49,236 nt of DNA from Candidatus Jorgensenbacteria bacterium (GTDB taxonomy: Bacteria; Patescibacteriota; Minisyncoccia; UBA6257; GWB1-50-10): positions 228,895 through 278,130 of the forward strand of contig JAUSHK010000005.1 of NCBI GenBank assembly GCA_030648515.1. Direction: 5' to 3'. The notes under the pieces were generated by a model. It was not told the DNA's origin. It ran no database searches and saw nothing but the letters and a program-made list of their open reading frames with translations. Below, piece after piece: positions 14,728 to 27,933 of this stretch. Position 1 is the first letter of the stretch; every line of letters begins with the position of its first letter. The position numbers and the translations under genes were made by a program.

Positions 14728-17277
14728 TTATTGAGTCGGCTTGCCTACATTCACGCAATCGGCGTTTGTAAGGCACTGCCGTTCGGACTTCTCGCCTAAA
14801 GCGTTCGGGCCCCATTGCTTGATTGATGTGTTGCAAAAATTATTTCCGGCGCAGATCGGGCGCGGCGTTTGGTCTGCGTCTTTCGGAAGCGGCGAGGCGA
14901 GTGTTTTTGTTGCGGCTACGTTTGACCAGCCCGAACATCCTCCACTTGTTCCTCTCGGGCACAACCGCACGCGATATATGTACACCGTGTCGGAGTGGCC
15001 TATGTCCTGAAATGACGACCCGGGAGCCATCTGCGGCATATCAACAAAATATATTTCGTATTGCGAAAGCAATGTTTCCCCGTGCGCGACGAATGAATTT
15101 TTTATAAGTTCAATGGTGCTTCTAAGCTTTTCTAATGCCGCGCCGTACCAGTTTTGCAAAATATCCACTATTGTTTGCGCCTGTTTTTTAATAACGTCGT
15201 AGACCGACGCGGTGTATCCGCTTTTCATCGCAAGCGTTGCGAACTTGCTTACCGCGATTCTCGCTGACGCGATTTTTTGCGCGTCGCTCGTTACTTGCGA
15301 AACAAACTCGGAAATGCGCGGCAGCGGCAAAGAAATTTGTTCCAGTAGCGCCGCGGTTGCTACTTTTTTATTAAACACCGCTGTTACGCTGGCATTCCCC
15401 CAAAGTAATACATCGCAATATGCGCTCCCGCCGCTGCACGTTCCGCCCGACCAGTTCGTAAAAGAATATCCGGCCGCGTACATGGGAGTGAGCCGCACCT
15501 GCGTGCCACTGTCATAGCTCGTTTCGCACGGCGCGTTCATGTCTTTGCATGTTGCTTCAGCTCCGAGCCCAGGGCCGTTCAATATCGTTGCCGGCGCCGC
15601 GATAACTTTTTCCTGTACTTGGTTGCCGTACGCGCCGAGCGGCTCAAATGACGTGGTAATATTGCTTCGGAACGGGGCGAACCGCGCGGTTACCGTGGCA
15701 TTCCTTATAATTTGAAACGCGCATATTTTACTTAATGTGTTAGTGCACACGTCCTGATTCCAATCGCGGAACACGAAGAGCGCTTCCGGATTTGCGGTAA
15801 GCGTTACCGTGCTCCCGCGTATGAAAGCGGCTGAAGCGGTGGAGGAACCCACCGTGCACGTTGTTCCGCATACAATGGTATTGCCGTCGGTTATCGTTCC
15901 GCCGGCTTGCGGATCTTTCATCACCCTTACGGTGTAATATTTTTTAGCGAACGTCGCCGTTATCACCGCATTGCCGGAAACGCTGCACGTTCCAGTTCCG
16001 GAACATATTCCAGCCGGATCAGACCAGCCGACAAACACGAAATTTTTTGTCGCGTCGTCTGGATATAGGGAATCAGTAACTGGCGTTGCGGTGAGTTGTA
16101 CCGTCGTCCCCGCTTTGAATGTCACATTCTCCATCCGTGTGCATGAATTTGCTCCGCACGTTACGGCAATACTGCTAGTTGAGTCGCCTGCCGTCCCCCT
16201 GCCGTCTCCGCTTCCGATAAGCGTCACGAGAAAATCCGTTGCCTGTGACATTTCACTGGACATTGAGTATGTGTATCCGCCGCCCAGGATGTCGTAGTAT
16301 GCGCGGACTACATATTTGTACGTAGTGTTTGTCTTGAGCCCCGTGTCAGAATATTTCATCACGCCGGTTAGTGCTCCTTTTGTCGCGTAGTTGTCAAATT
16401 TTTTAATTAACAATCCATCGCGGTAAAGTTCGTATCGCGTATCTTTTTTGGAATTATCCGTCCACTGCACGTCTATGCTTGTAGTCGCAACGCTTACTGC
16501 GGCGAGTTGTGTCGGAGCGTTCGGCTGCGTTGTTATTCCCACGCTCGCGGTATACGGCCCGCACGGCGTGTTCGGTTTTGCATTCAAATCAGCATTTATA
16601 TCACCCGCACCTTTAACTGTGTAAAAACTTGCAACATCAATCGTTGAACAAACAGTCGCGCGGTAGTAGTACGTCGTTGCTTCGCCAAGTCCGGAATCTA
16701 AAAACGCGAACCGGCCGGCGTTGGGAACAAGCACGCTGTTTTTTAGCGGCGGACTATATGTTTCACCGCGGTCGTAAAGAATTTTATTCGTAGCGTCGAA
16801 TGTTGTGAACCGTTGCGCCGAGTTCGCGTTTGAACTTCGCATAAATCTCCCGAAATACGGCGTTTTCGTCGTGCTGTTTTGCCATATGAGTTTTACGGAA
16901 TTGGGGCCGGTTGAGGTCGCCGAGAGATTTTCGCTTTGCGCCATTTCAAGCGCGATGCGCTGGATTTGAAACTGGTACGGGGTCGCCCGCGTCGCGTTAT
17001 CTCTCCAGTTTATATAAATAAGCGACGTATTATTCACGAACGCTTTTAAATCGGATGGCGCTTCGCTTCCGGTAGCTGAAATGCTTCTAACTGCAGCGGG
17101 CGCGGAAACGGCCGGAGCTTGCGCTACAGAAACAGCGGGCGCCGGCGGCGCTGGTTCGGCAAGTTTTACGTTCGCCTGCTGAGCCGGCTGTGTTTGAGCC
17201 GGCGGAAGCGTGCGCACGATAAAAATCACTTCTATTACAATTATGAGCGAAACAACAAAAAACAAAACTATCCGCAT
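14728..17277 (-). CDS. large secreted/anchored FN3 and B-repeat surface protein (start moved to ATG 17277)
   Basis: N-terminal hydrophobic anchor, Pro/Ala linker, FN3 motifs (WTDNS...YELYRDG...YKYVVRAY), B-repeat-like units (VTLTA.P...F..W...C) and a Cys-rich C-terminus. TATAAT sits 7 nt before ATG 17277. Confidence 0.85.
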   Translation of the reverse strand: MRIVLFFVVSLIIVIEVIFIVRTLPPAQTQPAQQANVKLAEPAPPAPAVSVAQAPAVSAPAAVRSISATGSEAPSDLKAFVNNTSLIYINWRDNATRATPYQFQIQRIALEMAQSENLSATSTGPNSVKLIWQNSTTKTPYFGRFMRSSNANSAQRFTTFDATNKILYDRGETYSPPLKNSVLVPNAGRFAFLDSGLGEATTYYYRATVCSTIDVASFYTVKGAGDINADLNAKPNTPCGPYTASVGITTQPNAPTQLAAVSVATTSIDVQWTDNSKKDTRYELYRDGLLIKKFDNYATKGALTGVMKYSDTGLKTNTTYKYVVRAYYDILGGGYTYSMSSEMSQATDFLVTLIGSGDGRGTAGDSTSSIAVTCGANSCTRMENVTFKAGTTVQLTATPVTDSLYPDDATKNFVFVGWSDPAGICSGTGTCSVSGNAVITATFAKKYYTVRVMKDPQAGGTITDGNTIVCGTTCTVGSSTASAAFIRGSTVTLTANPEALFVFRDWNQDVCTNTLSKICAFQIIRNATVTARFAPFRSNITTSFEPLGAYGNQVQEKVIAAPATILNGPGLGAEATCKDMNAPCETSYDSGTQVRLTPMYAAGYSFTNWSGGTCSGGSAYCDVLLWGNASVTAVFNKKVATAALLEQISLPLPRISEFVSQVTSDAQKIASARIAVSKFATLAMKSGYTASVYDVIKKQAQTIVDILQNWYGAALEKLRSTIELIKNSFVAHGETLLSQYEIYFVDMPQMAPGSSFQDIGHSDTVYIYRVRLCPRGTSGGCSGWSNVAATKTLASPLPKDADQTPRPICAGNNFCNTSIKQWGPNALGEKSERQCLTNADCVNVGKPTQ

Positions 17278-17299
17278 TAGGTTTATTATATCACCAATA

Positions 17300-17331
17300 A
17301 AATCCGCTCCGACTTTTTGCCGGAGCGGATT
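17300..17331. other. intergenic stem-loop
   Basis: aatccgctccg-9 nt-cggagcggatt, a perfect 11-bp stem between the two surface-protein genes. Confidence 0.55.
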
Positions 17332-17347
17332 CCGCTTCAAATTTTTT

Positions 17348-17368
17348 CTACTCACTACCAACTACTCA
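17348..17368. repeat. heptamer tandem repeat, 3 units (CTACNMA on the plus strand)
   Basis: ctactca ctaccaa ctactca; same family as 11645-11672 in the opposite orientation. Confidence 0.5.
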
Positions 17369-17381
17369 CTTCCGTTACTAC

Positions 17382-20300
17382 CTACCTCTCCCTGAACGTC
17401 TGGTCCGCGCGGCCGACATCGCGGCAATCGGCGTTTATCTGACATTGTTGTTCCGATTTTTCATTGGCGCCGTTGTAAGATTGCGTGATTGAGAAGTCAC
17501 AGAAGCTTGGCTTACATATCGGCCTGGCGGTGCTATTTGAAATAATTCCTGCGCTATCAAGCGTCTTTGTTGCCACCATATTTGACCACGGGGTGCACGT
17601 ACCACCCGAGCATAATCTCACGCGGTAGACGTACACTGCGTTTGCGGTAAGTCCCATGTCATTATAGAAAGAGTCTGCTAAGCCACTCTTAATTGAAGTG
17701 AAGTAACTTTCTTGTATAGACGATTGTCCGTGAGCGGTAAACAGGTTCATCATGAATTCGGATGCGCCGTTTAGCGCGTCTGATATTGTGCTATACACAT
17801 TGAGCGGCGCGATTATTTTTTGCGAAGAGCTATTAAACGCCGCGTTGTATGCCGAGGCAAAGTTTGTATTTCTCTCCGGCACGCTGATTCTGATACCCTC
17901 CGAGATTTGTGAGAAAAACGCGCCTACACTCGGAAGTGAGAATGAAACCTGATTTGAATTGAGCGCGCTTGCCGTTGTTTTAGTAAACACTGCGGTTGCC
18001 TGTCTTGAGCCGACAATCTGAGCAGTGTCGCATACTGGCGATGTACTGCCAAAACATTCTCCTGTCCCCCAATGCGTGAAAGAGTATCCGGTAACTGGCT
18101 GAGCGCTCAACCGCATTATTGTATCGGTTGTTAAACTTATTGCGCACGGAGACATGGAATCCACGCAGTTTATTGAGCCGCTCCCGCCGCCGGTAGCTGT
18201 TCCAGTAACCCGGTTTCCATTTGAACCCGCCGGCTGAATTGTCACTGTGAGCGTACTTACGGATGAGGCGAAGTTGGCGGTTGTATCTGCGTCCCGTGTT
18301 ACCTGGAAGCTACAAGTTAGATTACTTATGCCATTGCACGGCGATGGAGCAATTTGGCCTGAGGGATCTGTTGATATCCAAGAAGAGAGAATGTAATTAA
18401 CATTGGGGCTCGCGGTAAATTGAACGGTTTGTCCGCGTTCTATTATTCCCGAACAAACTCCGCTTGCGCACGAAAGGTCATTTGAAGCGATTAATCCTTT
18501 ACCGCCATCATATCGGGCGTACACCCTATAATATTTGAGCGCGAAGTTTGCAGTTATATCTGCATTGCCAGAAAGCGTGCATTTTTCGCCTTTTGCGCCG
18601 CTTATGTTTTGGCAACTACCGCCCCATCCGGCAAACACATAATCTCCTTGTGCTTGTGTCGCAGTGAGTGTGACGGTTTGGTCATTTTTGAACACAATAC
18701 CAGTGCATGTGGTTTCCCCTGGGTTGGGCCCGCAATTAATTTTATCTCCACTGACGCCTGGAATATCACTCGTCACGGTTCCCTGCCCGTCACCGCCTCT
18801 TGTAACCGACACGATATAGTCAGTTTTCTGATTTACCGCTATCTGGTTTGAGTATAGTTTGCTCTGCCCTCCTGGAATATTGTAATAGGCGCGCACTGTG
18901 TAGGCGTATGTAGTACCCGCATTAAGCCCGGCATCCGTATACTCTATGGTATTTCCAACGGTGCCTTTTATAGTTGCGCTGGATTCAAGCGTCTTAATTA
19001 CCGCGCCGTCGCGCACAACTTCGTACCCAGTTTCTTTTTTGGAATTATCAGTCCATGAGAGCTTAATACTTTTATCCGTAACTTGGACCGCTTGCACGCC
19101 TGACGGCGCGTTCGGCCACGTTGTCGTTTTAACAGACGTTGTATACGGCCCACATGGAGGATTAGGTTTCCCCGCGCTCAAATCCATATGCGCGTCCGTT
19201 GCCCCTTTCTTTGTGTATATATCCGGAATCGGAAGCGATGAACACGCGCGCGCCTTGTACCAATACGTCGTAACTTCATCAAGACCATTCCCTTGGTCCA
19301 ACGAGTATGTCGGCGACGCCATGGGCCCGTTTTGTTGCGTGTTGTCTTCCACTGTCTTCACTGTTGAGAAATTCTGGTCAGTGCTTCTCGCAAACTGCCC
19401 CGTGAACGGCTTTGTTGTGCTATTTTGCCACACAAGTTTTGTGGAATTGGACCCAGTTGATGTCGCGGTAAGGCCGGTGCTTTGCGCCATATCCAAACCG
19501 AAGCGTTGAATTTCAAACGTGTATGAGCCAGCTGGACGCGTGGAATTATCTTTCCAGTTCAGATAGACAACCTTGTCGCTGTTTGCAAACGCTTTGAGGT
19601 TTGACGGCGTTTCATTTGTTGTTTGCGCCGTTCTGCATGGCTGCGTGTTTTCTATTTCCTTTGTAAATTGCGGCGCCGGGCTTGAGTATGCCGCGTCCAA
19701 CTTATAGTAGTAATCCACGCCTGATTTCAGGCCGACATGAGTATATAAACCGCTGCTTGGTGACGGTGAATTTATTTTTGTCCACACGCCGGAAGCGCCT
19801 TCTTTATATAAGAGAGCGAGTGTATGCGGAGCATAGGTTGTGTAAGACATGTCTGTGTAACGCTTGGTCCAATTTACATCAATCGTGTTCTGATTCTTCG
19901 GCACGCACGTTGGCGGATAGTACGGGTCCAGTGCGGAAAATGTAAACGAATCGCTTACTTTTGAATTGTCCTTTTTCATTGCCTTCACTGTTATATTATT
20001 TTGGTTTACCTGCGGCGCGGTATATGTCGCCTCCCCGTAGGTGTCGGTGCTCTCGGGAGTTATTGAACCGCACGTTCCACCTGGTGGACAGGTTATGGAC
20101 CAATCAGCCCCCAACCCCGAACTCACCTTTGTTTTAAATTGTTCAAGGATTGCGAGGTCTCCATACGGCTCTGTTATGCTAAATTCTCCAGGCGGCGTTG
20201 TGAACGCCACATATTGGCCGTAACCCGTGCCCCCCGCGAAGTTTGTCGCGAATGCACGGACGTGATATGTGACGCCAGGGGTAAGTCCCGTTAGCGAGCC

Positions 20301-22835
20301 GACAAATGCCCCAATTCCGAAGGCGCCGTTTTCTACTGGCGTCGTCCACATGTCGGTTTCTGTCGTACCATACTTAAACCCGCGGACCGACGCATTCTCT
20401 CCGCCTGTCGCGGTAATGGTTCCGTTTGCCGTTGCTCCCCCTCCCGTTATTCCCGTTGGTGCCTGCGTCGTTACAGTCGGCGCGACTGTCTGCGAAATAC
20501 CCGAATGATTATCCTGTGGCAACGGCGATTGTGTTGTGAATTGTTGATCAAAACCATAACCTGTTCCGCCTGTCTGACCCGTTTGATTTGTAGCAAAAGC
20601 GCGAACGTGGTATATCGTTCCGGGCGAGAGGCCTGTTAACGGCTTATTAAACGCTCCTGTTCCAAATGAGCCAGGTTCGCTTACCGTGTTTCCATACATT
20701 GCCGTAAGTCCGTACTCAAATCCGCGGACTGTTGCGTTTTCCCCGCCGGTTCCCGTGATTGTTCCATTCGCCGTCGCGATTGTTTCTCCTATATTAGTAG
20801 CGCCTCCCGTTGTTACCGCCGGAGCGGTGATGGTTGGAATAAATGTGGTTCCGCCGCAGTTCGCCCTGCATACGTTATCGGAACAGCGCGTGGTACCCGT
20901 AGGGCAAGAAGTGTCTACAATGATATTCGGCGTAGTGCATAACTTTGAGACATCCATCGCAAAATTGTCGCCATATTTCGTTTCAAGCTTGAACGTATAA
21001 TCCGCGTCTGAATAAAGTCCGGTTAAAGTTTGTGAGTTGCTTCCAACCGAGGGAATTGCGGCGGCTGTCGCCCATGGACCGCCACTGCTATAGAAAAGCG
21101 TAAGCGCGTGCTGGGCGTAGTTCGCCTCCGTGTATTGCTTCGCCCAGCTGACATTAATTGAGCTTGCATTAATAGTGTTGCATGACAGGGCGTACGGCGT
21201 TATAACAGCAACCGTTTTGGAATCCGTTTTTTTACTAACTTCCGTAGTATTTTCTATCGCGGTAATTACCACGGACTGCGTGGTGTCAGGCGCGGTATAT
21301 GTCGTTGACTGGTTTGTATTCGTTGAAGCTTTTGAAAAAATGCCGGCGGTCGCGCTCCAGTCCGTTTTATAATCGCTAACGTTCAAATCTACTTTCTCTC
21401 TAATCGCAAGTGGCGTCCTGCTTCCGGTTATTGAGAATGGCAGTAGGGGCGGAATGTCCTTTGATTTTGATATTGTAAAGCTTTGCCAAATTGGGATTTC
21501 GGGACCGGTCTTTTCTATTATTAGTGGGAGGGCGCTTGGATCGGTGTCTGATAATAAATTTGTGGCAAATGCGTAATATTTATAATCCCCCGCGGCAAGA
21601 TTTTTAAGCACTACGCTGAATGAGTTTGATGTCTGGAGAGCCAATACGGTTTGTATGGTGCCGTCTATAGTGCCATCTGTTTTGAGTTTGTAATAATTAA
21701 AACCTCTGTACTTAATCGTCGTCCAGTCCGCATCTCCGCCGATATCGCTAACGTTGCCGGTTAATGTAACCGAATTTTGCGCCGAGTTTTGCGCCAACAC
21801 TGTATTTATCAAACTGGCAAAATTCGGCGTTTTAGCAGAACTCACCACCGCGGATTTTGTTACCACCGTTGGCGGATTTGCTTGTGTTATAGCTTTCGCA
21901 TCAAATGTGCTGTAATTCCTAATAGGAACACCATAGACATCTTTTGCTTTATCATTTTCAGCAAAAGCCCTTACTGAATATTTGGATCCTAATAAAACAT
22001 GTGGACCTTCTGTTGATAGTGAGAAGTTATGTATTAAGAGTGGGTTATTTTGCTTTGTAAGTGCTGTAATTCCATTTTTATCTGTGTACGAAAAACCAAC
22101 TACTGTAATCTTCGTATTTGTCCCTCCAACACCTCCGATACTTGAAACATCGCCGGTTGCGGTTATTGATCTTGTTGCGGTACTTACCGCGCTTCTTGTC
22201 GCAACAGTCGGCCCGACTGGCTGAGCTGGCGGTTGTGGCGGAGTAACTGCCACCGTGTCCGCTGTTATGCCGTCAATAGGCAGTGTGTCTGAAAAATTTA
22301 TTCCGCCAACGCCTCCGCGTTCCGCGTTTTGAGTTGTGCCGGAAAACCTGATGCGGTTACTACCGCCAGTAATTATATTGAACGTAACACCGCTCAAATT
22401 TATAAATCCTCCGGTATTTTCGGAATATGCATATCCGCTTAGGCTTTGGTTTGTCGTGTCGAATTTTGCTTCATTGCATTGAGCGCCTCCGCAGTGATTC
22501 GCGAAATTTTTACCGAATACAAGCGACCCAATGGACTCGAAAGTGTTGTCAAAGCGCATATCCGCTGACCCGGAAAGATTACCAAAATCGTCCGAGGACA
22601 CATTTGACGTTATGGTTCTACCCAACCCATTAATTGTTTCATTATTTACATTGAATACTACCCATATTAATTGCCCTTCGCCTATATTCGCAGTTTTCGC
22701 GGCGCCATACATCTTTGTAATTTTGTACCCCATGTACGGCTGTGCCTGCGCCTGCGTAAACTGCGCGGACATTGTTAACGCAACCCCGACCGCGATTACA
22801 ACTGCAAGCCCGCCGAAAAGTAAAATCTTTTTCAT
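17382..22835 (-). CDS. 1817-aa secreted multi-FN3/Ig-like surface protein
   Basis: Signal peptide, repeated PxVxT...GGENAxVRGF.YG...YHVRAFATN modules, FN3 and B-repeat units; the C-terminal half is paralogous to 14728-17277. Confidence 0.9.
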   Translation of the reverse strand: MKKILLFGGLAVVIAVGVALTMSAQFTQAQAQPYMGYKITKMYGAAKTANIGEGQLIWVVFNVNNETINGLGRTITSNVSSDDFGNLSGSADMRFDNTFESIGSLVFGKNFANHCGGAQCNEAKFDTTNQSLSGYAYSENTGGFINLSGVTFNIITGGSNRIRFSGTTQNAERGGVGGINFSDTLPIDGITADTVAVTPPQPPAQPVGPTVATRSAVSTATRSITATGDVSSIGGVGGTNTKITVVGFSYTDKNGITALTKQNNPLLIHNFSLSTEGPHVLLGSKYSVRAFAENDKAKDVYGVPIRNYSTFDAKAITQANPPTVVTKSAVVSSAKTPNFASLINTVLAQNSAQNSVTLTGNVSDIGGDADWTTIKYRGFNYYKLKTDGTIDGTIQTVLALQTSNSFSVVLKNLAAGDYKYYAFATNLLSDTDPSALPLIIEKTGPEIPIWQSFTISKSKDIPPLLPFSITGSRTPLAIREKVDLNVSDYKTDWSATAGIFSKASTNTNQSTTYTAPDTTQSVVITAIENTTEVSKKTDSKTVAVITPYALSCNTINASSINVSWAKQYTEANYAQHALTLFYSSGGPWATAAAIPSVGSNSQTLTGLYSDADYTFKLETKYGDNFAMDVSKLCTTPNIIVDTSCPTGTTRCSDNVCRANCGGTTFIPTITAPAVTTGGATNIGETIATANGTITGTGGENATVRGFEYGLTAMYGNTVSEPGSFGTGAFNKPLTGLSPGTIYHVRAFATNQTGQTGGTGYGFDQQFTTQSPLPQDNHSGISQTVAPTVTTQAPTGITGGGATANGTITATGGENASVRGFKYGTTETDMWTTPVENGAFGIGAFVGSLTGLTPGVTYHVRAFATNFAGGTGYGQYVAFTTPPGEFSITEPYGDLAILEQFKTKVSSGLGADWSITCPPGGTCGSITPESTDTYGEATYTAPQVNQNNITVKAMKKDNSKVSDSFTFSALDPYYPPTCVPKNQNTIDVNWTKRYTDMSYTTYAPHTLALLYKEGASGVWTKINSPSPSSGLYTHVGLKSGVDYYYKLDAAYSSPAPQFTKEIENTQPCRTAQTTNETPSNLKAFANSDKVVYLNWKDNSTRPAGSYTFEIQRFGLDMAQSTGLTATSTGSNSTKLVWQNSTTKPFTGQFARSTDQNFSTVKTVEDNTQQNGPMASPTYSLDQGNGLDEVTTYWYKARACSSLPIPDIYTKKGATDAHMDLSAGKPNPPCGPYTTSVKTTTWPNAPSGVQAVQVTDKSIKLSWTDNSKKETGYEVVRDGAVIKTLESSATIKGTVGNTIEYTDAGLNAGTTYAYTVRAYYNIPGGQSKLYSNQIAVNQKTDYIVSVTRGGDGQGTVTSDIPGVSGDKINCGPNPGETTCTGIVFKNDQTVTLTATQAQGDYVFAGWGGSCQNISGAKGEKCTLSGNADITANFALKYYRVYARYDGGKGLIASNDLSCASGVCSGIIERGQTVQFTASPNVNYILSSWISTDPSGQIAPSPCNGISNLTCSFQVTRDADTTANFASSVSTLTVTIQPAGSNGNRVTGTATGGGSGSINCVDSMSPCAISLTTDTIMRLSAQPVTGYSFTHWGTGECFGSTSPVCDTAQIVGSRQATAVFTKTTASALNSNQVSFSLPSVGAFFSQISEGIRISVPERNTNFASAYNAAFNSSSQKIIAPLNVYSTISDALNGASEFMMNLFTAHGQSSIQESYFTSIKSGLADSFYNDMGLTANAVYVYRVRLCSGGTCTPWSNMVATKTLDSAGIISNSTARPICKPSFCDFSITQSYNGANEKSEQQCQINADCRDVGRADQTFRER

Positions 22836-22869: not shown

Positions 22870-22930
22870 AAAATGAATGAACTCCTTTCCGCACTTCAGT
22901 GCGGGGGGTGCTCCTGAGAAAGCAACAACC
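22870..22930. repeat. hairpin-containing degenerate direct repeat, copy A (resembles an IS200/IS605 end)
   Basis: aaaatga...ctcct..cgcac-ttca-gtgcgggg...ctg..aaag.aa.aacc aligns by eye with 26312-26365. Confidence 0.5.
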
Positions 22931-22939
22931 CCAAAGTGT

Positions 22940-24187
22940 TTAAATACTTTGGGGTTTAGGGAATACGTCTTGCTTTAAAAGATGTTCATTAAACGCCGTA
23001 ATGCTATAAGGGTCAGGCGTCGTCGTATCTTTATGAAATATAAACGAGCGAGCTTGACACCCGCCTAGTCCATCCAACCTAAATTGTTTGAATATCTCAT
23101 GGTTTTTCCACGTTTCAATAAATTTTTTATCAAACAATGGTAAGTCCTCGGGTCGGTAATAGCCAGCGTAAACAAGTGACGGACAGGGAAGCATTTGCCC
23201 CGTAGTATTGATTACCAAGCCAGATTGGGCAGCCCGACATTCGTTGTAGACGCGGCCATTGAGTAATTTACCAACAATCGCGGCATTTGAAATGCCGACC
23301 TCGTACACTCCAGCCTGTCTGAGTCGAAAGAGATCAATAACAATGTCAAAAAACGTTTCAGGTCTAAGCGTCAAACTTTCGTGCGCCGACTTGAAAGGCT
23401 TGAATAGGTTGAAATTACAAATCACGCCAATAGTTTTGCAATAATCAAGTATTTCACGATAAGTCGGAGCATTTATTGCGTTCAAGGTAGAAATAACCTC
23501 GACTTCAATGCCATGTTGTTGAAGTCGCTGAATCGCTGCTTCAACTCTCCGGAACGTACCCTTGCCACGGATGCGATCGTGCTCTGATTCTATCCCATCC
23601 AAGCTCACAAAAATCGAGAGGCGTTCTACAGACGCGAGCCAGTCCGCTGTTGTTTCATCAATTAGAAGACCATTCGTTACGGTGTCGATGGCAAATTCGT
23701 GTTTTTGACAATGTTTGAGAATTTCCTGGATATCGGGATGGAGAAAGGGTTCGCCACCGATGACACTCACCTCAAAAATCCCTGCATGGGCGAGGATATC
23801 AAGGATCTCAAATACTTTCCCTTTCGGCATAAACACCTCAGAATAGTTATCCTGAAAACAATGCAAGCAGCGCAAATTACAGCCGGTTGTCACTTCAAGT
23901 TCAACACCCAAAGGAATGTCGGTTTGCGTCTGCGTGATCAGGCTGAACCTTTTAGGACTCAGTTCTTCCTCAACTTTATTGATGAAATCTGTGACATCCA
24001 CTTGAGCTTCGGCTAACTGTACTCCGTACTCAATTGCAATGGCGTGCGTTATTTCGTCAACGCTGTTTTGCTGGTTGAATAAAGAATTAAGAATTTTCGC
24101 TCCCAGCTCGTTTACTCCCACGATTCTACGAGAATCTATGAAGTAGGCGAAAATTTGGTCACCATCACTTCTGATTTTGACTAACAT
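22940..24187 (-). CDS. radical SAM peptide-modifying enzyme with an N-terminal PqqD/RRE-like domain and a reduced SPASM/twitch C-terminus
   Basis: CNLRCLHC, GGEP, TNG and SLDG; the N-terminus has the RRE pattern (VNELGAKIL...SVDEI...EYGV...DVTDFI); C-terminal CRAA...GQMLPC...GGCQAR. Confidence 0.9.
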   Translation of the reverse strand: MLVKIRSDGDQIFAYFIDSRRIVGVNELGAKILNSLFNQQNSVDEITHAIAIEYGVQLAEAQVDVTDFINKVEEELSPKRFSLITQTQTDIPLGVELEVTTGCNLRCLHCFQDNYSEVFMPKGKVFEILDILAHAGIFEVSVIGGEPFLHPDIQEILKHCQKHEFAIDTVTNGLLIDETTADWLASVERLSIFVSLDGIESEHDRIRGKGTFRRVEAAIQRLQQHGIEVEVISTLNAINAPTYREILDYCKTIGVICNFNLFKPFKSAHESLTLRPETFFDIVIDLFRLRQAGVYEVGISNAAIVGKLLNGRVYNECRAAQSGLVINTTGQMLPCPSLVYAGYYRPEDLPLFDKKFIETWKNHEIFKQFRLDGLGGCQARSFIFHKDTTTPDPYSITAFNEHLLKQDVFPKPQSI

Positions 24188-24214
24188 ATGACTCCCTTCT
24201 TTATGTTTTAGTAG

Positions 24215-24248
24215 AAAAAAAGGGGCCTGATTTTATACTTGGCCCCTT
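24215..24248 (-). terminator. intrinsic terminator between the precursor ORF and the radical SAM gene
   Basis: The minus strand reads aaggggcc-13 nt-ggcccc followed by a T run. Confidence 0.75.
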
Positions 24249-24278
24249 AAACTCCTACTCGGTGGTTGGTTACTCCAC

Positions 24279-24449
24279 TTATTGGTATTTTTTTGCTTGT
24301 CCAATAATCAAGGCGGCTCTCGCGTTACCTCTCTTGCCTACCTGCATTGGACCCGGAACTCCTCCGCAACTACGGAGACAACAGCCTGATTCCACCGGTT
24401 CTGGACTTGATCCCTTGATGGTTACCGCTGGTTTTTCGTAGGTTTTCAT
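24279..24449 (-). CDS. putative RiPP precursor peptide, 56 aa (not in the ORF track)
   Basis: MKTYEKPAVTIKGSSPEPVESGCCLRSCGGVPGPMQVGKRGNARAALIIGQAKKYQ; SD AAGGAGGTG upstream, YxxP leader motif and CCxxxC. Confidence 0.8.
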   Translation of the reverse strand: MKTYEKPAVTIKGSSPEPVESGCCLRSCGGVPGPMQVGKRGNARAALIIGQAKKYQ

Positions 24450-24633
24450 GGTTCTCACCTCCTTACCTACCGTTATGGTTTCTATATTGTTTTGAAGTAT
24501 CTGGCCTAAATACTAACAGAACCGTGGGATTTGTAAAGAACGCGTTCTTCTGTAAGAACTTGCGTTTTTCCTTCTCGTATTGCAGAATATTGACAGTAAA
24601 TTGCAAAAGGAATCTAATTAAGAGGAAACGCAT

Positions 24634-26229
24634 ATGATTCAAATTCGTAATGTCAGTAAAAGCTACGGGCCTCGGACTCTCTTTGAGCGACTCACGGTCT
24701 CAATTGATCGCGGGCAAAAGTTTGCATTAGTGGGTCCGAACGGCTCTGGTAAATCAACTCTCTTAAAAATTCTCTCTGGTACGGAAGTGCCGGACGAGGG
24801 TCAAGTAACGTACGGGGACAGTGACTGTGTAGGCTACCTCCCTCAAGAAATTGCCATTGAGTCAAATCAGTCAATTCTCAACTACGTGTCGGAATACGTT
24901 GAACATCGAAAAGGGCCAGGCACTTTTTTGCCGGTAAAGCATCGCATGCTTGCGATGATGGATACCTGCAAATTAAGCGCACTTTCAACGGATCGTTCTG
25001 TCACGTCGTTGAGCGGCGGAGAAAAAACAAAGATTGCTCTCATTGCCGTCCTATTAGCCGAACCAAACTTCCTTGTGCTTGATGAACCGACTAATAACAT
25101 CGATCTCCCGACGCTTCTGTGGATTGAGGCATATTTGCGGCAAACCGATGCTGGGGCAATAGTGGTATCTCACGACCGGAGATTTCTTGAGCGCGTGACA
25201 AATCGTGTGATGGAAATTGACCCGCACACCACGTCTGTAACGATACGTCGTGGAACTTTTACCGACTATCTCCATGACCGAGAAAAAGAACGGGTGCGTC
25301 TTCTGCAGATGTATGAGGAGCAACGAGTGGAGGTCAAGCGACTTACTGAACAAGCGGTCCGTCTGCGCGCCGCGGGGGAACAAGGATCTCAATGGGTTGG
25401 CAGTGACAACGACAAGTTTCTTCGGGGATTCAAACGAGATCGTGCCTCAAAGTCGGGGAAAAAAGCGAAAGTGATTGAAAAGCGTATTGAGCAGATGGAA
25501 CACATTGAACGTCCATTGGAAAACAAGGAACTGCAGTTCCGGCTCCGCCCAGACATTACCAAAGGATCCGGAGATATCACACTTGAACATGCGATTACTA
25601 AGTATCCCTCTGGATTTTCGTGTGGGCCGATATCATTTTCCATTCCCTACGGGTCTCGAATTGTGCTTATGGGCGCGAACGGTGCGGGAAAAAGTACGCT
25701 TCTTAAAATGATTTCTGGAGAGATTCAGCCAGCGTCAGGCATTATATACCGCGGACAGGGAATACGTTTCGGCAATTTCTCACAGGGGCACAAAACGCTT
25801 AATTTGAAACAAACCCCGCTTCAGTTGATTCAGGAAAAAGCCACGGTGCGCGAGCAAGACGCCTATGCTGTTTTGTCTTTGTACGGAATCAAAGCAGAGA
25901 AGACGGATCAACTAATTGGTTTACTAAGCCCCGGGGAGCGAGCACGAATACTTCTTGCGCTGTTCTCTGCGCTTTCGGCAAATGTTCTTTTACTTGACGA
26001 ACCAACTAATCATCTTGACATCGAAGCGCAGGAGGCGCTTGAAACGGCGTTGAGGAATTTTACAGGGACACTTGCGTTGGTTTCCCACGATCGGCTTTTC
26101 ATTGACCGGATTGGCGTAGCCGATATATATGTGATGGAAAATGGCAAACTAGGAAGGAAAGAAAATCTCCATGCATATATGTCTCAAGTTGAACGGATTT
26201 CACAAAAAATGTTACGAGTACTTGTATGA
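24634..26229 (+). CDS. ABC-F family ribosome-associated ATPase
   Basis: Two ABC domains (GPNGSGKST/LSGGE/LDEPTN and GANGAGKST/LSPGE/LDEPTNHLD), a helical linker and no TM segments. Confidence 0.92.
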   Translation: MIQIRNVSKSYGPRTLFERLTVSIDRGQKFALVGPNGSGKSTLLKILSGTEVPDEGQVTYGDSDCVGYLPQEIAIESNQSILNYVSEYVEHRKGPGTFLPVKHRMLAMMDTCKLSALSTDRSVTSLSGGEKTKIALIAVLLAEPNFLVLDEPTNNIDLPTLLWIEAYLRQTDAGAIVVSHDRRFLERVTNRVMEIDPHTTSVTIRRGTFTDYLHDREKERVRLLQMYEEQRVEVKRLTEQAVRLRAAGEQGSQWVGSDNDKFLRGFKRDRASKSGKKAKVIEKRIEQMEHIERPLENKELQFRLRPDITKGSGDITLEHAITKYPSGFSCGPISFSIPYGSRIVLMGANGAGKSTLLKMISGEIQPASGIIYRGQGIRFGNFSQGHKTLNLKQTPLQLIQEKATVREQDAYAVLSLYGIKAEKTDQLIGLLSPGERARILLALFSALSANVLLLDEPTNHLDIEAQEALETALRNFTGTLALVSHDRLFIDRIGVADIYVMENGKLGRKENLHAYMSQVERISQKMLRVLV

Positions 26230-26688: not shown

Positions 26689-27933
26689 ATGAGAAAATCC
26701 TTAGCACTTTTGATTGTTGTAGCGTTGCTTGGATTTGCGGCGCCTTCCAAGGCGCAGATCCAAACCGATCCAGTCAATGGATGGTATCCGGATTCAGTAT
26801 CGTCTGGCGTAACCAAGTTTTACCAAAGGTTCGTCAAGAACGATAACCCATTCTCAAATGATTTAGGAAAGGGTTCCCAGCTTTTTGGGGTAGCGATGAA
26901 AGCGGGAAAGAAAATTTTGATGAAAAAGGATTTAGAGAGAGAACAAGATTTACCGGCAAAGGGATTAACACTAAAGCTTGACTTTAATTACGTTACACTT
27001 AAACCGGACAGTACACCCTTTGGATTTAATTTCTTTTTTTCTCATGGTGATACTGTAATCTATTCTTTTGGACACGAGGTCGAGCAACGTGTGGCAAGTG
27101 AGTGGGGTCGTATTACTTCTTCCGTAACCTATCTAAATGACTATGGCTACGGTATCCAAAAAATCGATGCAATTGGATTTGAATTTTACGCGCGCGGTAA
27201 AGATATTGAGTTAGCGGAAATCATGCTCGATAATCTGATTCTCATCCAGGACAGCTCCGTAGTTGTCTTGGACAACTTCGACGGCGACGCGGGTATTGCG
27301 AAAGCATCATTCTCAATGCCCGAAGGAACATACGATTTCGGTGTTGTGAAATTCGGAGAAAAAAAGACAGTAATTCTACGCGCCAGAAATGACACAACGG
27401 ATAGGGCCGGAGGAACCGCCTATGTTACTGGAACCCAAAGCAGGGATCCGCGGATTACAGTAACTCCTGACACAGCAATCATTAGTCCTGGAAATTATAA
27501 GGACTTCAGAGTTACCTACGCTCCTATAGCTGGGATGGGACCAGGGCCTTGGTACATCGTTTTCAATCTTGAAAATTGCGTCACATCAGCTGAGTCAGTG
27601 TCAGTCACCGCCGATATCTCAACGGGCATTGACGACGAAACTGGCGATACCCCAGGAGTTTACTCATTGGGCAAGAACTATCCGAACCCTTTCAACCCAA
27701 CGACAAACATGAAGTTCACTATTCCCAAAGCTGGGATGGTGGAGTTCACAATCTACAGCATCCTTGGACAAAAGGTTAGGACACTTATCAGAGAACCGAT
27801 GAGTGTCGGTGTTCATGAAATCGCATTTGATGGACGCAACGACTCAGGCGAGAAACTTGCCTCCGGCGTTTATATCTATCAAATCGAGTCAGAAAATTTT
27901 ATCAAAGCCAGAAAAATGGCCATGATGAAATAG
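26689..27933 (+). CDS. secreted protein with an Ig-like domain and a T9SS/FlgD-like C-terminal sorting domain
   Basis: Signal peptide ending SKA|Q; C-terminal LGKNYPNPFNPTT...IYSILGQKVRTL...ASGVYIYQI...KMAMMK. Confidence 0.88.
   Translation: MRKSLALLIVVALLGFAAPSKAQIQTDPVNGWYPDSVSSGVTKFYQRFVKNDNPFSNDLGKGSQLFGVAMKAGKKILMKKDLEREQDLPAKGLTLKLDFNYVTLKPDSTPFGFNFFFSHGDTVIYSFGHEVEQRVASEWGRITSSVTYLNDYGYGIQKIDAIGFEFYARGKDIELAEIMLDNLILIQDSSVVVLDNFDGDAGIAKASFSMPEGTYDFGVVKFGEKKTVILRARNDTTDRAGGTAYVTGTQSRDPRITVTPDTAIISPGNYKDFRVTYAPIAGMGPGPWYIVFNLENCVTSAESVSVTADISTGIDDETGDTPGVYSLGKNYPNPFNPTTNMKFTIPKAGMVEFTIYSILGQKVRTLIREPMSVGVHEIAFDGRNDSGEKLASGVYIYQIESENFIKARKMAMMK

Follow-up and report, generated by a model that had tools for sequence, protein, structure and literature searches.

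A putative three-gene module for a radical SAM-modified peptide in the Candidate Phyla Radiation

What is the role of a 56-residue open reading frame (ORF) that lies just upstream of a radical S-adenosylmethionine (SAM) enzyme in a genome of only 690.8 kb (5 contigs, 100% complete)? The question is raised by a 49,236-nt stretch of DNA from Candidatus Jorgensenbacteria bacterium (assembly GCA_030648515.1, contig JAUSHK010000005.1, positions 228,895 to 278,130), hereafter referred to as the window. A first-pass annotation, made from the window sequence alone, had interpreted the two genes as a pathway for a ribosomally synthesized and post-translationally modified peptide (RiPP), in which the enzyme recognizes its substrate through a fused PqqD-like RiPP recognition element (RRE). 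The small ORF, its ribosome-binding site, the hairpin with a T-run that follows it, and the PqqD/RRE radical SAM gene are all located where that annotation had placed them. They are listed below, together with a third gene, encoding an ABC-F (ATP-binding cassette subfamily F) ATPase, which recurs next to the pair. On balance, we consider it probable that the three genes constitute a module of a hitherto undescribed family of RiPPs that occurs chiefly in the Candidate Phyla Radiation (CPR)/Patescibacteria and would operate by the mechanism proposed below.

24449..24279, minus strand: precursor peptide gene, 56 residues (small ORF with an ATG start)
24464-24456, minus strand: Shine-Dalgarno sequence AAGGAGGTG, 6 nt 5' of the precursor ATG
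24215..24248, minus strand: G+C-rich stem-loop with a T-run, interpreted as a partial intrinsic terminator (from folding)
24187..22940, minus strand: putative maturase, 415 residues, with RRE/PqqD, radical SAM and C-terminal twitch-like domains (from Pfam and an AlphaFold model)
24634..26229, plus strand: ABC-F ATPase, 531 residues, divergent from the peptide gene (conserved neighbor of the pair)

The precursor peptide and its radical SAM enzyme

A first protein search returned three relatives of the peptide, and degenerate patterns from their alignment were then scanned on metagenome contigs, yielding 27 loci. (L-numbers denote the loci examined in this analysis, i.e. these peptide-found metagenome loci plus the genome loci.) A tblastn search places a homologue of the radical SAM enzyme directly 3' of the peptide, on the same strand, in 26 of the 27. 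These homologues start 60–140 bases past the peptide and are 40–52% identical to the window enzyme, mostly over the full length. The contig of the remaining locus, L025, ends ∼190 bases after the peptide. In the reverse test, an alignment of the enzyme was searched against one genome per species, and 80 loci were kept. Two true family members were found among the matches listed, titled Candidatus Berkelbacteria (49% identity) and Candidatus Saccharibacteria (40%), and both carry the peptide just upstream of the enzyme. The other loci listed reach at most 32% identity over more than 170 matched residues, with short radical SAM core segments of up to 39%, and are generic radical SAM proteins. 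The pairing proposed in the first-pass annotation from a single copy is thus recovered in searches made from either gene.

The 27 aligned peptides define a leader motif, K-x-Y-x-K-P-x-V...G (residues 2–13), in which P7 and V9 are near-invariant and Gly is usual at position 13. It is followed by a core, E17-x-x-E20-x-G-C23-C24-L-x-S27-C28-G-G-x-P32, with ten invariant positions (E17, E20, G22, C23, C24, S27, C28, G29, G30 and P32); L25 is nearly invariant, and the next position is Arg or Thr. The tail (residues 33–56) varies among the relatives in length, sequence and charge, and some tails are acidic. The basic C-terminal tail noted in the first-pass annotation is therefore a feature of this copy only. 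Homologous peptide ORFs encode 43–70 residues, and AGGAGG-type sites are present 5' of most of their starts.

The 27 distinct DNA versions of the core differ by 2886 synonymous and 1031 non-synonymous pairwise codon differences, in a comparison in which one row (L023) is out of register. All or several of the synonymous codons are used for the invariant Gly, Cys, Leu and Ser residues. Such synonymous turnover at invariant residues indicates that conservation of the precursor acts at the protein level. Judged by its relatives and by this codon pattern, the small ORF is more than a chance frame.

A profile search with the 27 aligned peptides detected 135 clusters at E≤0.001. The GCC...CGG segment is kept in all 120 listed relatives, and the strict E..E.GCC..SCGG.P pattern in 111 of these; every source name among them is "hypothetical protein". 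Six have organism labels: Patescibacteria group (2), Candidatus Falkowbacteria (1), Clostridia/Clostridium (2), and Candidatus Woesearchaeota (1). A RiPP had been called unexpected in a CPR-like genome, an expectation that is overturned by a family labelled mostly as CPR/Patescibacteria. Three relatives with the full GCC..SCGG core, P0236, P0263 and P0257, are labelled Clostridia, Clostridium sp. and Candidatus Woesearchaeota (an archaeon), respectively; the peptide family may extend beyond CPR bacteria, or these sequences may come from mixed bins. A scan of viral contigs with the peptide profile gave 16 pattern matches, none of which was confirmed as a relative.

The enzyme is rare among genomes. 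It was found in none of 95 genomes of the same family as the window genome and in one of 400 other sampled genomes of the phylum, and the window genome contains no second copy of either the peptide or the enzyme. The G+C content of the module (0.44–0.46) does not deviate from its surroundings and thus gives no hint of recent transfer.

Two Pfam domains are identified in the 415-residue enzyme, PqqD (residues 18–74, E=9.1e-9, 36 bits vs. a cut-off of 23.4) and Radical_SAM (residues 98–249, E=1.8e-23). The AlphaFold (AF2) model is of high confidence (predicted local distance difference test (pLDDT) 90.2, predicted template modelling score 0.89). Its N-terminal region, approximately residues 1–78, is an RRE/PqqD winged helix-turn-helix domain consisting of three strands (residues 3–8, 11–16 and 21–25) followed by three helices (27–38, 43–54 and 58–75). 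This modelled β3α3 arrangement is the topology of an RRE, which, together with the PqqD match, agrees with the earlier assignment of the domain.

The SAM-cluster motif, C103-x3-C107-x2-C110, is invariant among 16 aligned members of the enzyme family, and the sole invariant Cys residues outside it are C317, C335 and C377. A full seven-Cys SPASM domain with two auxiliary clusters was not found (Pfam SPASM E=0.12; three invariant Cys). The three C-terminal Cys residues suggest instead a twitch-like domain, capable of binding a single auxiliary cluster through three Cys. A Foldseek search with the model returned the streptide maturase SuiB first (E=8e-20, template modelling score 0.69 over 424 columns, 17% identity), followed by CteB, SkfB, anSME, TigE, ChlB, MoaA and PqqE. 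A profile search of Protein Data Bank (PDB) sequences placed the thioether-forming SkfB at the top (E=4.4e-36), followed by SuiB and CteB.

About two dozen clusters, scoring 170–497 bits, make up the enzyme family and stand above the generic radical SAM background (1.84 billion representatives searched). The enzyme scores below the NCBIfam cut-offs for sacti-type maturases: AlbA, 65.7 bits vs. 850; SkfB, 64.6 vs. 300; and StsB, 68.4 vs. 625. The peptide matched none of the NCBIfam families and no named family in Pfam, NCBIfam or the ESM Atlas. Only unnamed ESM Atlas clusters were returned (scores 0.87–0.88, under the 0.9 lead level), and residues 1–13 have a weak match to Pfam DUF5972 (E=0.13, below cut-off). 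The precursor thus stands outside the named families, as had been supposed, and by these comparisons the module as a whole lies outside every curated family tested.

The interaction of the two proteins was modelled by co-folding the whole enzyme with the peptide, each with its alignment, in the presence of two 4Fe-4S clusters and SAM. This gave a score of 0.77, compared to 0.01 for the best of three controls. In calibration, a mark of 0.77 was met by 58 of 80 solved complexes and by 2 of 110 mismatched pairs, counts that are rough here, given the custom alignments and the ligands riding along in the co-fold. The runs share at least 44% of contacts, with a partner pLDDT of 55 or higher. Peptide residues 2–18 make confident contacts with enzyme residues 18–29 (strand β3) and 64–76 (helix α3), with P7 to I11 pairing with residues 23–29. 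The expected error is lowest at the near-invariant P7 and V9. The leader is thus predicted to be held on the β3/α3 groove in the usual RRE manner, a placement on the N-terminal domain that the first-pass annotation had anticipated.

The spacer between the peptide and enzyme genes is 91 bases long in the window. It contains a hairpin with an 8-bp stem (24248-24241 paired with 24227-24220), followed by seven T's ending at 24215. Folding of positions 24195-24285 gives a ΔG of −25.9 kcal/mol (z=−3.42), and one of 200 shuffled sequences is as stable. The terminator scan missed this hairpin, because its loop of 13 nt exceeds the 3–8 nt allowed. A G+C-rich stem-loop is present in the spacer of 27 of 28 loci (z between −1.8 and −5.6), the exception being L040, whose spacer is 9 nt long. 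The stem sequences differ between lineages, 16 of 28 loci have at least four T's in a row after the stem, and the hairpins fold tens of nucleotides past the peptide stop codon. This recurrent element fits a partial terminator that would keep peptide mRNA above enzyme mRNA.

The ABC-F ATPase and other neighbors

Neighboring genes were surveyed by clustering the ORFs of 28 loci, namely the window and the 27 loci from metagenomes. An ABC-F gene adjoins the pair in 22 of these, as well as in both genome loci. With a third gene flanking the pair in 24 of 30 loci, the original description as a two-gene pathway no longer holds, and the functional reading of the locus has changed with it. The placement of the ABC-F gene varies, upstream or downstream of the pair and on either strand. 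Four of the six loci without it end at contig ends (L008, L009, L021 and L025). L022 has 1.8 kb of sequence past the enzyme, and in both L022 and L024 a DUF2268 predicted zinc protease lies directly 3' of the enzyme in place of the ABC-F.

The window ABC-F has two ABC domains joined by a linker (Pfam ABC_tran in two stretches and ABC_tran_Xtn at residues 206–301), with no membrane domain. It passes the NCBIfam model NF000355 ("ribosomal protection-like ABC-F") with 404.8 bits vs. a cut-off of 380, as do all ten other ABC-Fs scored (overall range 394–452 bits), while none of the module ABC-Fs passes the EttA or Uup models. By its sequence, the window protein is of the ribosome-binding kind; a role in resistance is inferred.

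The window genome encodes three ABC-Fs. One paralogue, on another contig and 48% identical to the window protein (C5:22009-23637; L030:1498-3270, minus strand), also matches NF000355, with 425 bits. It is flanked by a helicase/restriction-enzyme-like ORF and a recombinase-like ORF, both named by eye from their translations. The paralogue may be carried by a mobile element as an orphan protection gene. The third ABC-F (29% identical) is of a widespread type and fails NF000355 (320.5 bits). Relatives of the window ABC-F with at least 33% identity occur in 4 of the 95 genomes of the same family. Both this protein and the enzyme (absent from all 95) are thus encoded by rare accessory genes, which travel as a pair.

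Across the 16 loci that contain both genes in full length, enzyme and ABC-F pairwise identities are correlated (r=0.87), a value reached by none of 2000 permutations. A comparison of L006 with L002 says more than this correlation: the enzymes are 89% identical and the ABC-Fs 47%, and an ABC-F is still found at the site. Two loci appear to be decayed. In L023 (5043-5045), an in-frame TAG occupies the codon of the invariant E17 of the peptide. In L007 (872-1100), the RRE and the CxxxCxxC motif have been lost through a deletion that fuses the peptide tail to the enzyme at about residue 112. The neighboring ABC-F is kept in both.

In the L002 lineage, a gene of ∼298 residues lies beside the ABC-F on the minus strand (L002:3514-4410, L004:3710-4606, L010:8263-9162 and L011:7207-8106). 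The L002 copy, the one scanned, matches the Erm 23S rRNA methyltransferase model NF000499 with 242.6 bits vs. a cut-off of 212, and falls below the KsgA cut-off (158.7 vs. 171). None of 14 control genomes passes NF000499, and the window genome gives only a KsgA-level match (158.2 bits).

Other neighbors are less regular. A DUF2268 protease is found in six loci and an M16 peptidase in L005, with weak MA-type peptidase signals in one small cluster. The earlier statement that no peptidase is adjacent is correct for the window, whose genome has no match to PF10026; in some other loci, DUF2268 or M16 proteins do adjoin the module. L026 contains an integrase, and L028 contains genes resembling recombinases. 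The recurring clusters and scanned neighbors of the 28 loci include neither a lasso cyclase nor a leader protease, and an oxidoreductase is not a conserved neighbor among the clustered loci. In the Berkelbacteria locus, the gene just 5' of the peptide (L039:5300-5700, plus strand) ends in an ABC transporter ATPase signature, read by eye, making it the sole exporter candidate seen beside the module. A conserved protein of 277–279 residues, with no Pfam or NCBIfam match, lies just 5' of the peptide on the plus strand in three loci (L006:3-842, L010:3892-4725 and L011:2836-3669).

Proposed mechanism and alternative explanations

In the mechanism we favor, the 56-residue product would be a precursor whose leader, K-x-Y-x-K-P-x-V, is held as an extra β-strand by the RRE fused to the enzyme. 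The radical SAM enzyme would then modify the core, E-x-x-E-x-G-C-C-L-[R/T]-S-C-G-G-x-P. The intergenic stem-loop would end most transcripts past the peptide gene and thereby keep the peptide in excess over the enzyme. That the small ORF and the enzyme are a true precursor/maturase pair is, in our view, very likely. Their chemistry may consist of one to three Cys-derived thioether cross-links, a proposal that has slightly less than an even chance of being correct. It is based on the thioether-forming nearest solved sequence relatives, the three invariant Cys residues of the core, and the possible three-Cys auxiliary cluster. CteB has a three-Cys auxiliary cluster that takes a substrate Cys as its fourth ligand, and a single auxiliary Fe-S cluster on the three Cys residues of the present enzyme could do the same. 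Glu17, Glu20 and Ser27, all invariant, are candidate thioether acceptors, by analogy with PapB and QhpD, which make Cys-Glu and Cys-Asp links. The leader would be removed by variable peptidases (DUF2268, M16) where these are present.

A functional tie between the ABC-F and the pair is likely. What the tie consists of is a more tentative matter. The mature peptide may bind the large ribosomal subunit near the peptidyl-transferase center or exit tunnel, with the ABC-F, and Erm in one lineage, providing self-protection; we would put this at not quite an even chance. Ribosome self-protection is the simplest reading; the Erm neighbor, and the decayed loci that have retained an ABC-F, point in the same direction.

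Several observations weigh against these proposals. For the enzyme, no NCBIfam maturase model is matched at its cut-off (the best is MftC, 100 bits vs. 265), the Pfam SPASM match is weak and below cut-off, and the C-terminal domain is, by its Cys content, reduced and twitch-like rather than a canonical SPASM domain. The co-fold may reflect likeness rather than proof, similar complexes having been solved (SuiB–SuiA, 5v1t), and it gives no confident placement of the core Cys residues. The thioether chemistry itself is inferred from the three Cys and the nearest solved relatives. With regard to the ABC-F, L024 has none within 5 kb on each side, and the 48% identical paralogue has neither a peptide gene nor a radical SAM gene nearby. 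NF000355 is broad, being passed in 8 of 14 control genomes, whereas the models for resistance subfamilies (Msr, Vga, Lsa, Sal, CplR, OptrA and producer type) stay below cut-off for the module ABC-Fs; the producer-type model NF000171 gives 277–334 bits vs. 800. Among PDB sequences, the window ABC-F matches a chain named ExpZ (226.8 bits) and EttA (209.6 bits) nearly equally. The correlation of enzyme and ABC-F identities may arise from shared descent alone, as the 16 loci represent about nine lineages. Finally, Erm occurs in a single lineage of the module, no exporter recurs among the loci, and the window genome lacks a match to the DUF2268 peptidase.

Alternative explanations account for some of these observations. 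In one, the peptide gives rise to an intracellular cofactor, or to a small redox or metal-binding molecule, similar to PqqA or MftA products, with the ABC-F being incidental or regulatory. Although the enzymes are only 40–50% identical, the peptide core hardly varies, which is typical of cofactor precursors and not of fast-evolving antimicrobials, and its three Cys and two Glu residues could bind a metal. The lack of a conserved exporter, and of a detectable peptidase in the window genome, also speaks for this reading, as does the top NCBIfam match of the enzyme, the mycofactocin maturase MftC. However, that match is far below its cut-off, and the peptide has no C-terminal Gly-Val-Tyr as in MftA. 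The very sparse distribution (none of the 95 genomes of the family, one of 400 others in the phylum) and the lack of a conserved dependent oxidoreductase nearby also argue against a cofactor, and the linkage to the ABC-F across rearrangements would be left unexplained. We consider this explanation rather unlikely. The same holds for the proposal that the RiPP pair is genuine and the ABC-F is not an immunity protein, acting instead as a translation factor for a Pro/Glu-rich precursor or as a signalling/regulatory ABC-F. ABC-F factors help ribosomes that have stalled at acidic or proline-rich sequences; the precursor is rich in Pro and Glu, with the stretches P-E-P-V-E and G-G-x-P-G. ABC-Fs are ribosome-binding translation factors, the EttA score is near that of resistance proteins, NF000355 is broad, and LmrC is a signal transducer. 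Such a function would not account for Erm beside the ABC-F in one lineage, and an ABC-F of the widespread type is already encoded elsewhere in the genome. In addition, the decayed loci L007 and L023 keep their ABC-Fs, which is a better fit to retained protection. It is also quite unlikely, although conceivable, that the cross-linked peptide is never exported and serves these ultra-small symbiotic bacteria as an endogenous factor that parks or tunes the cell's own ribosomes, from which the dedicated ABC-F evicts it with ATP, constituting a translation switch in place of an antibiotic with its immunity protein.

The arrangement of a short ORF, a terminator-like hairpin and a gene, with ribosome-protection-type neighbors (ABC-F and sometimes Erm), resembles that of a resistance operon controlled by a regulatory leader peptide, in which case a drug would stall ribosomes on the ORF, allowing read-through of the terminator, and the radical SAM protein would be a resistance enzyme that modifies rRNA, like Cfr. 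We regard this as very improbable, since the enzyme carries a domain for peptide binding, the RRE, and is closest in structure to peptide maturases, and the N-terminus of the ORF is placed on the RRE domain in the predicted complex. The ORF, with 43–70 residues and three invariant Cys, is long for an attenuation leader, and the hairpin lies tens of nucleotides past its stop codon; no search was made for anti-terminator pairing with the ORF. The remaining alternative, a chance frame beside an orphan radical SAM gene, has a negligible probability. The ORF is short and under the ORF-track cut-off, but its 135 database clusters at E≤0.001, the fixed synteny, the protein-level conservation with synonymous turnover, and the strong Shine-Dalgarno sequences before most starts are not properties of a chance frame. 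This reading was ruled out by the relatives, the synteny and the codon pattern.

Relation to known systems and features of the surrounding region

The proposed pair has features in common with several characterized pathways. Sactipeptide and ranthipeptide maturases such as SkfB and CteB likewise combine an RRE, a radical SAM domain and a C-terminal auxiliary domain, with a Cys-rich precursor encoded immediately upstream. PapB and QhpD belong to the same group, and SkfB, too, contains a "twitch" domain, reduced relative to a full SPASM domain. The module differs from these in that its enzyme falls below the NCBIfam cut-offs, has three auxiliary Cys residues, and acts on a putative core outside the named precursor families. 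To our knowledge, an ABC-F neighbor is not part of sacti- or ranthipeptide clusters. The streptide maturases SuiB and StrB have the same three-domain order and leader binding by the enzyme, and SuiB is the best full-length structural match. However, streptide chemistry is a Lys-Trp C-C link, whereas the module peptide contains no Trp, and the enzyme is 17% identical to SuiB.

The mycofactocin system (MftA/MftB/MftC) likewise consists of a small peptide and a radical SAM enzyme, and MftC is the top NCBIfam match. It differs from the module in the score discussed above and in the C-terminal Gly-Val-Tyr of its peptide. The mycofactocin RRE is a separate protein, MftB, whereas that of the module is fused to the enzyme. 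In lasso peptide pathways, the leader motif Y-x-x-P-x-L...G is bound by an RRE. The leader of the module, K-x-Y-x-K-P-x-V...G, has the same spacing, and its P7 and V9 are located on RRE strand β3 in the co-fold. Unlike in lasso pathways, the modifying enzyme is a radical SAM protein.

The ABC-F resembles producer self-resistance proteins (TlrC/CarA/OleB/SrmB type, NF000171), which are likewise two-domain proteins without a membrane part encoded beside biosynthetic genes, and which also include LmrC and VarM. Such self-resistance is known for small-molecule antibiotics of actinomycetes; we are aware of no producer ABC-F case that concerns a RiPP. The module ABC-Fs differ in their far lower NF000171 scores, and their role in resistance is putative. 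If the ribosome is indeed the target, the module would share the principle of a ribosome-blocking modified peptide with klebsazolicin, phazolicin and the thiopeptides. These acquire their azole or thiopeptide chemistry from YcaO-type enzymes, and immunity to klebsazolicin is by export. We know of no ribosome-targeting RiPP made by an RRE-radical SAM enzyme or from CPR bacteria.

A literature search returned only generic surveys of biosynthetic clusters or unrelated papers. Within the portion of the literature it covered, there was no report of the module, of the core motif, or of a link between ABC-F proteins and radical SAM RiPPs; supplements, which were outside the search, might list such clusters. 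The module would add to the known set a RiPP precursor family with an unusually rigid core, represented by at least 135 clusters that are all labelled hypothetical or left without a name, and a radical SAM maturase with a reduced, three-Cys auxiliary domain. If the interpretation is correct, CPR genomes of less than 1 Mb keep a dedicated natural-product module. The linkage to the ABC-F, and to Erm in one lineage, leads to a target hypothesis in which a peptide made by a radical SAM enzyme acts on the large ribosomal subunit. It also provides a way to mine uncultured bacteria for ribosome-targeting peptides, guided by resistance genes.

Two further elements flank the pair.

24510..24537, minus strand: promoter-like TTTACA-16-TAGTAT with a TG extension, 5' of the peptide gene (weak evidence)
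22927..22956, minus strand: terminator-like hairpin at the 3' end of the radical SAM gene, overlapping its stop codon (from the terminator scan)

Four promoter-like sites were observed in the region, compared to 3.1 expected by chance. Directly 3' of the radical SAM gene, on the minus strand, are ORFs of 1817 and 877 residues (17382-22835 and 14728-17361, respectively). They cluster together, are rich in Ser, Thr and Gly, and look like surface proteins; the 877-residue ORF has no NCBIfam match. On the plus strand, a 414-residue protein (26689-27933) has a C-terminus that matches the type IX secretion sorting domain TIGR04183 with 36 bits vs. a cut-off of 23, which is unexpected in a 0.69-Mb genome of CPR size. 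The segment 28501-34500 has a G+C content of 0.35–0.39, compared to 0.43–0.53 elsewhere in the window, and may be a foreign island a few kilobases from the module.

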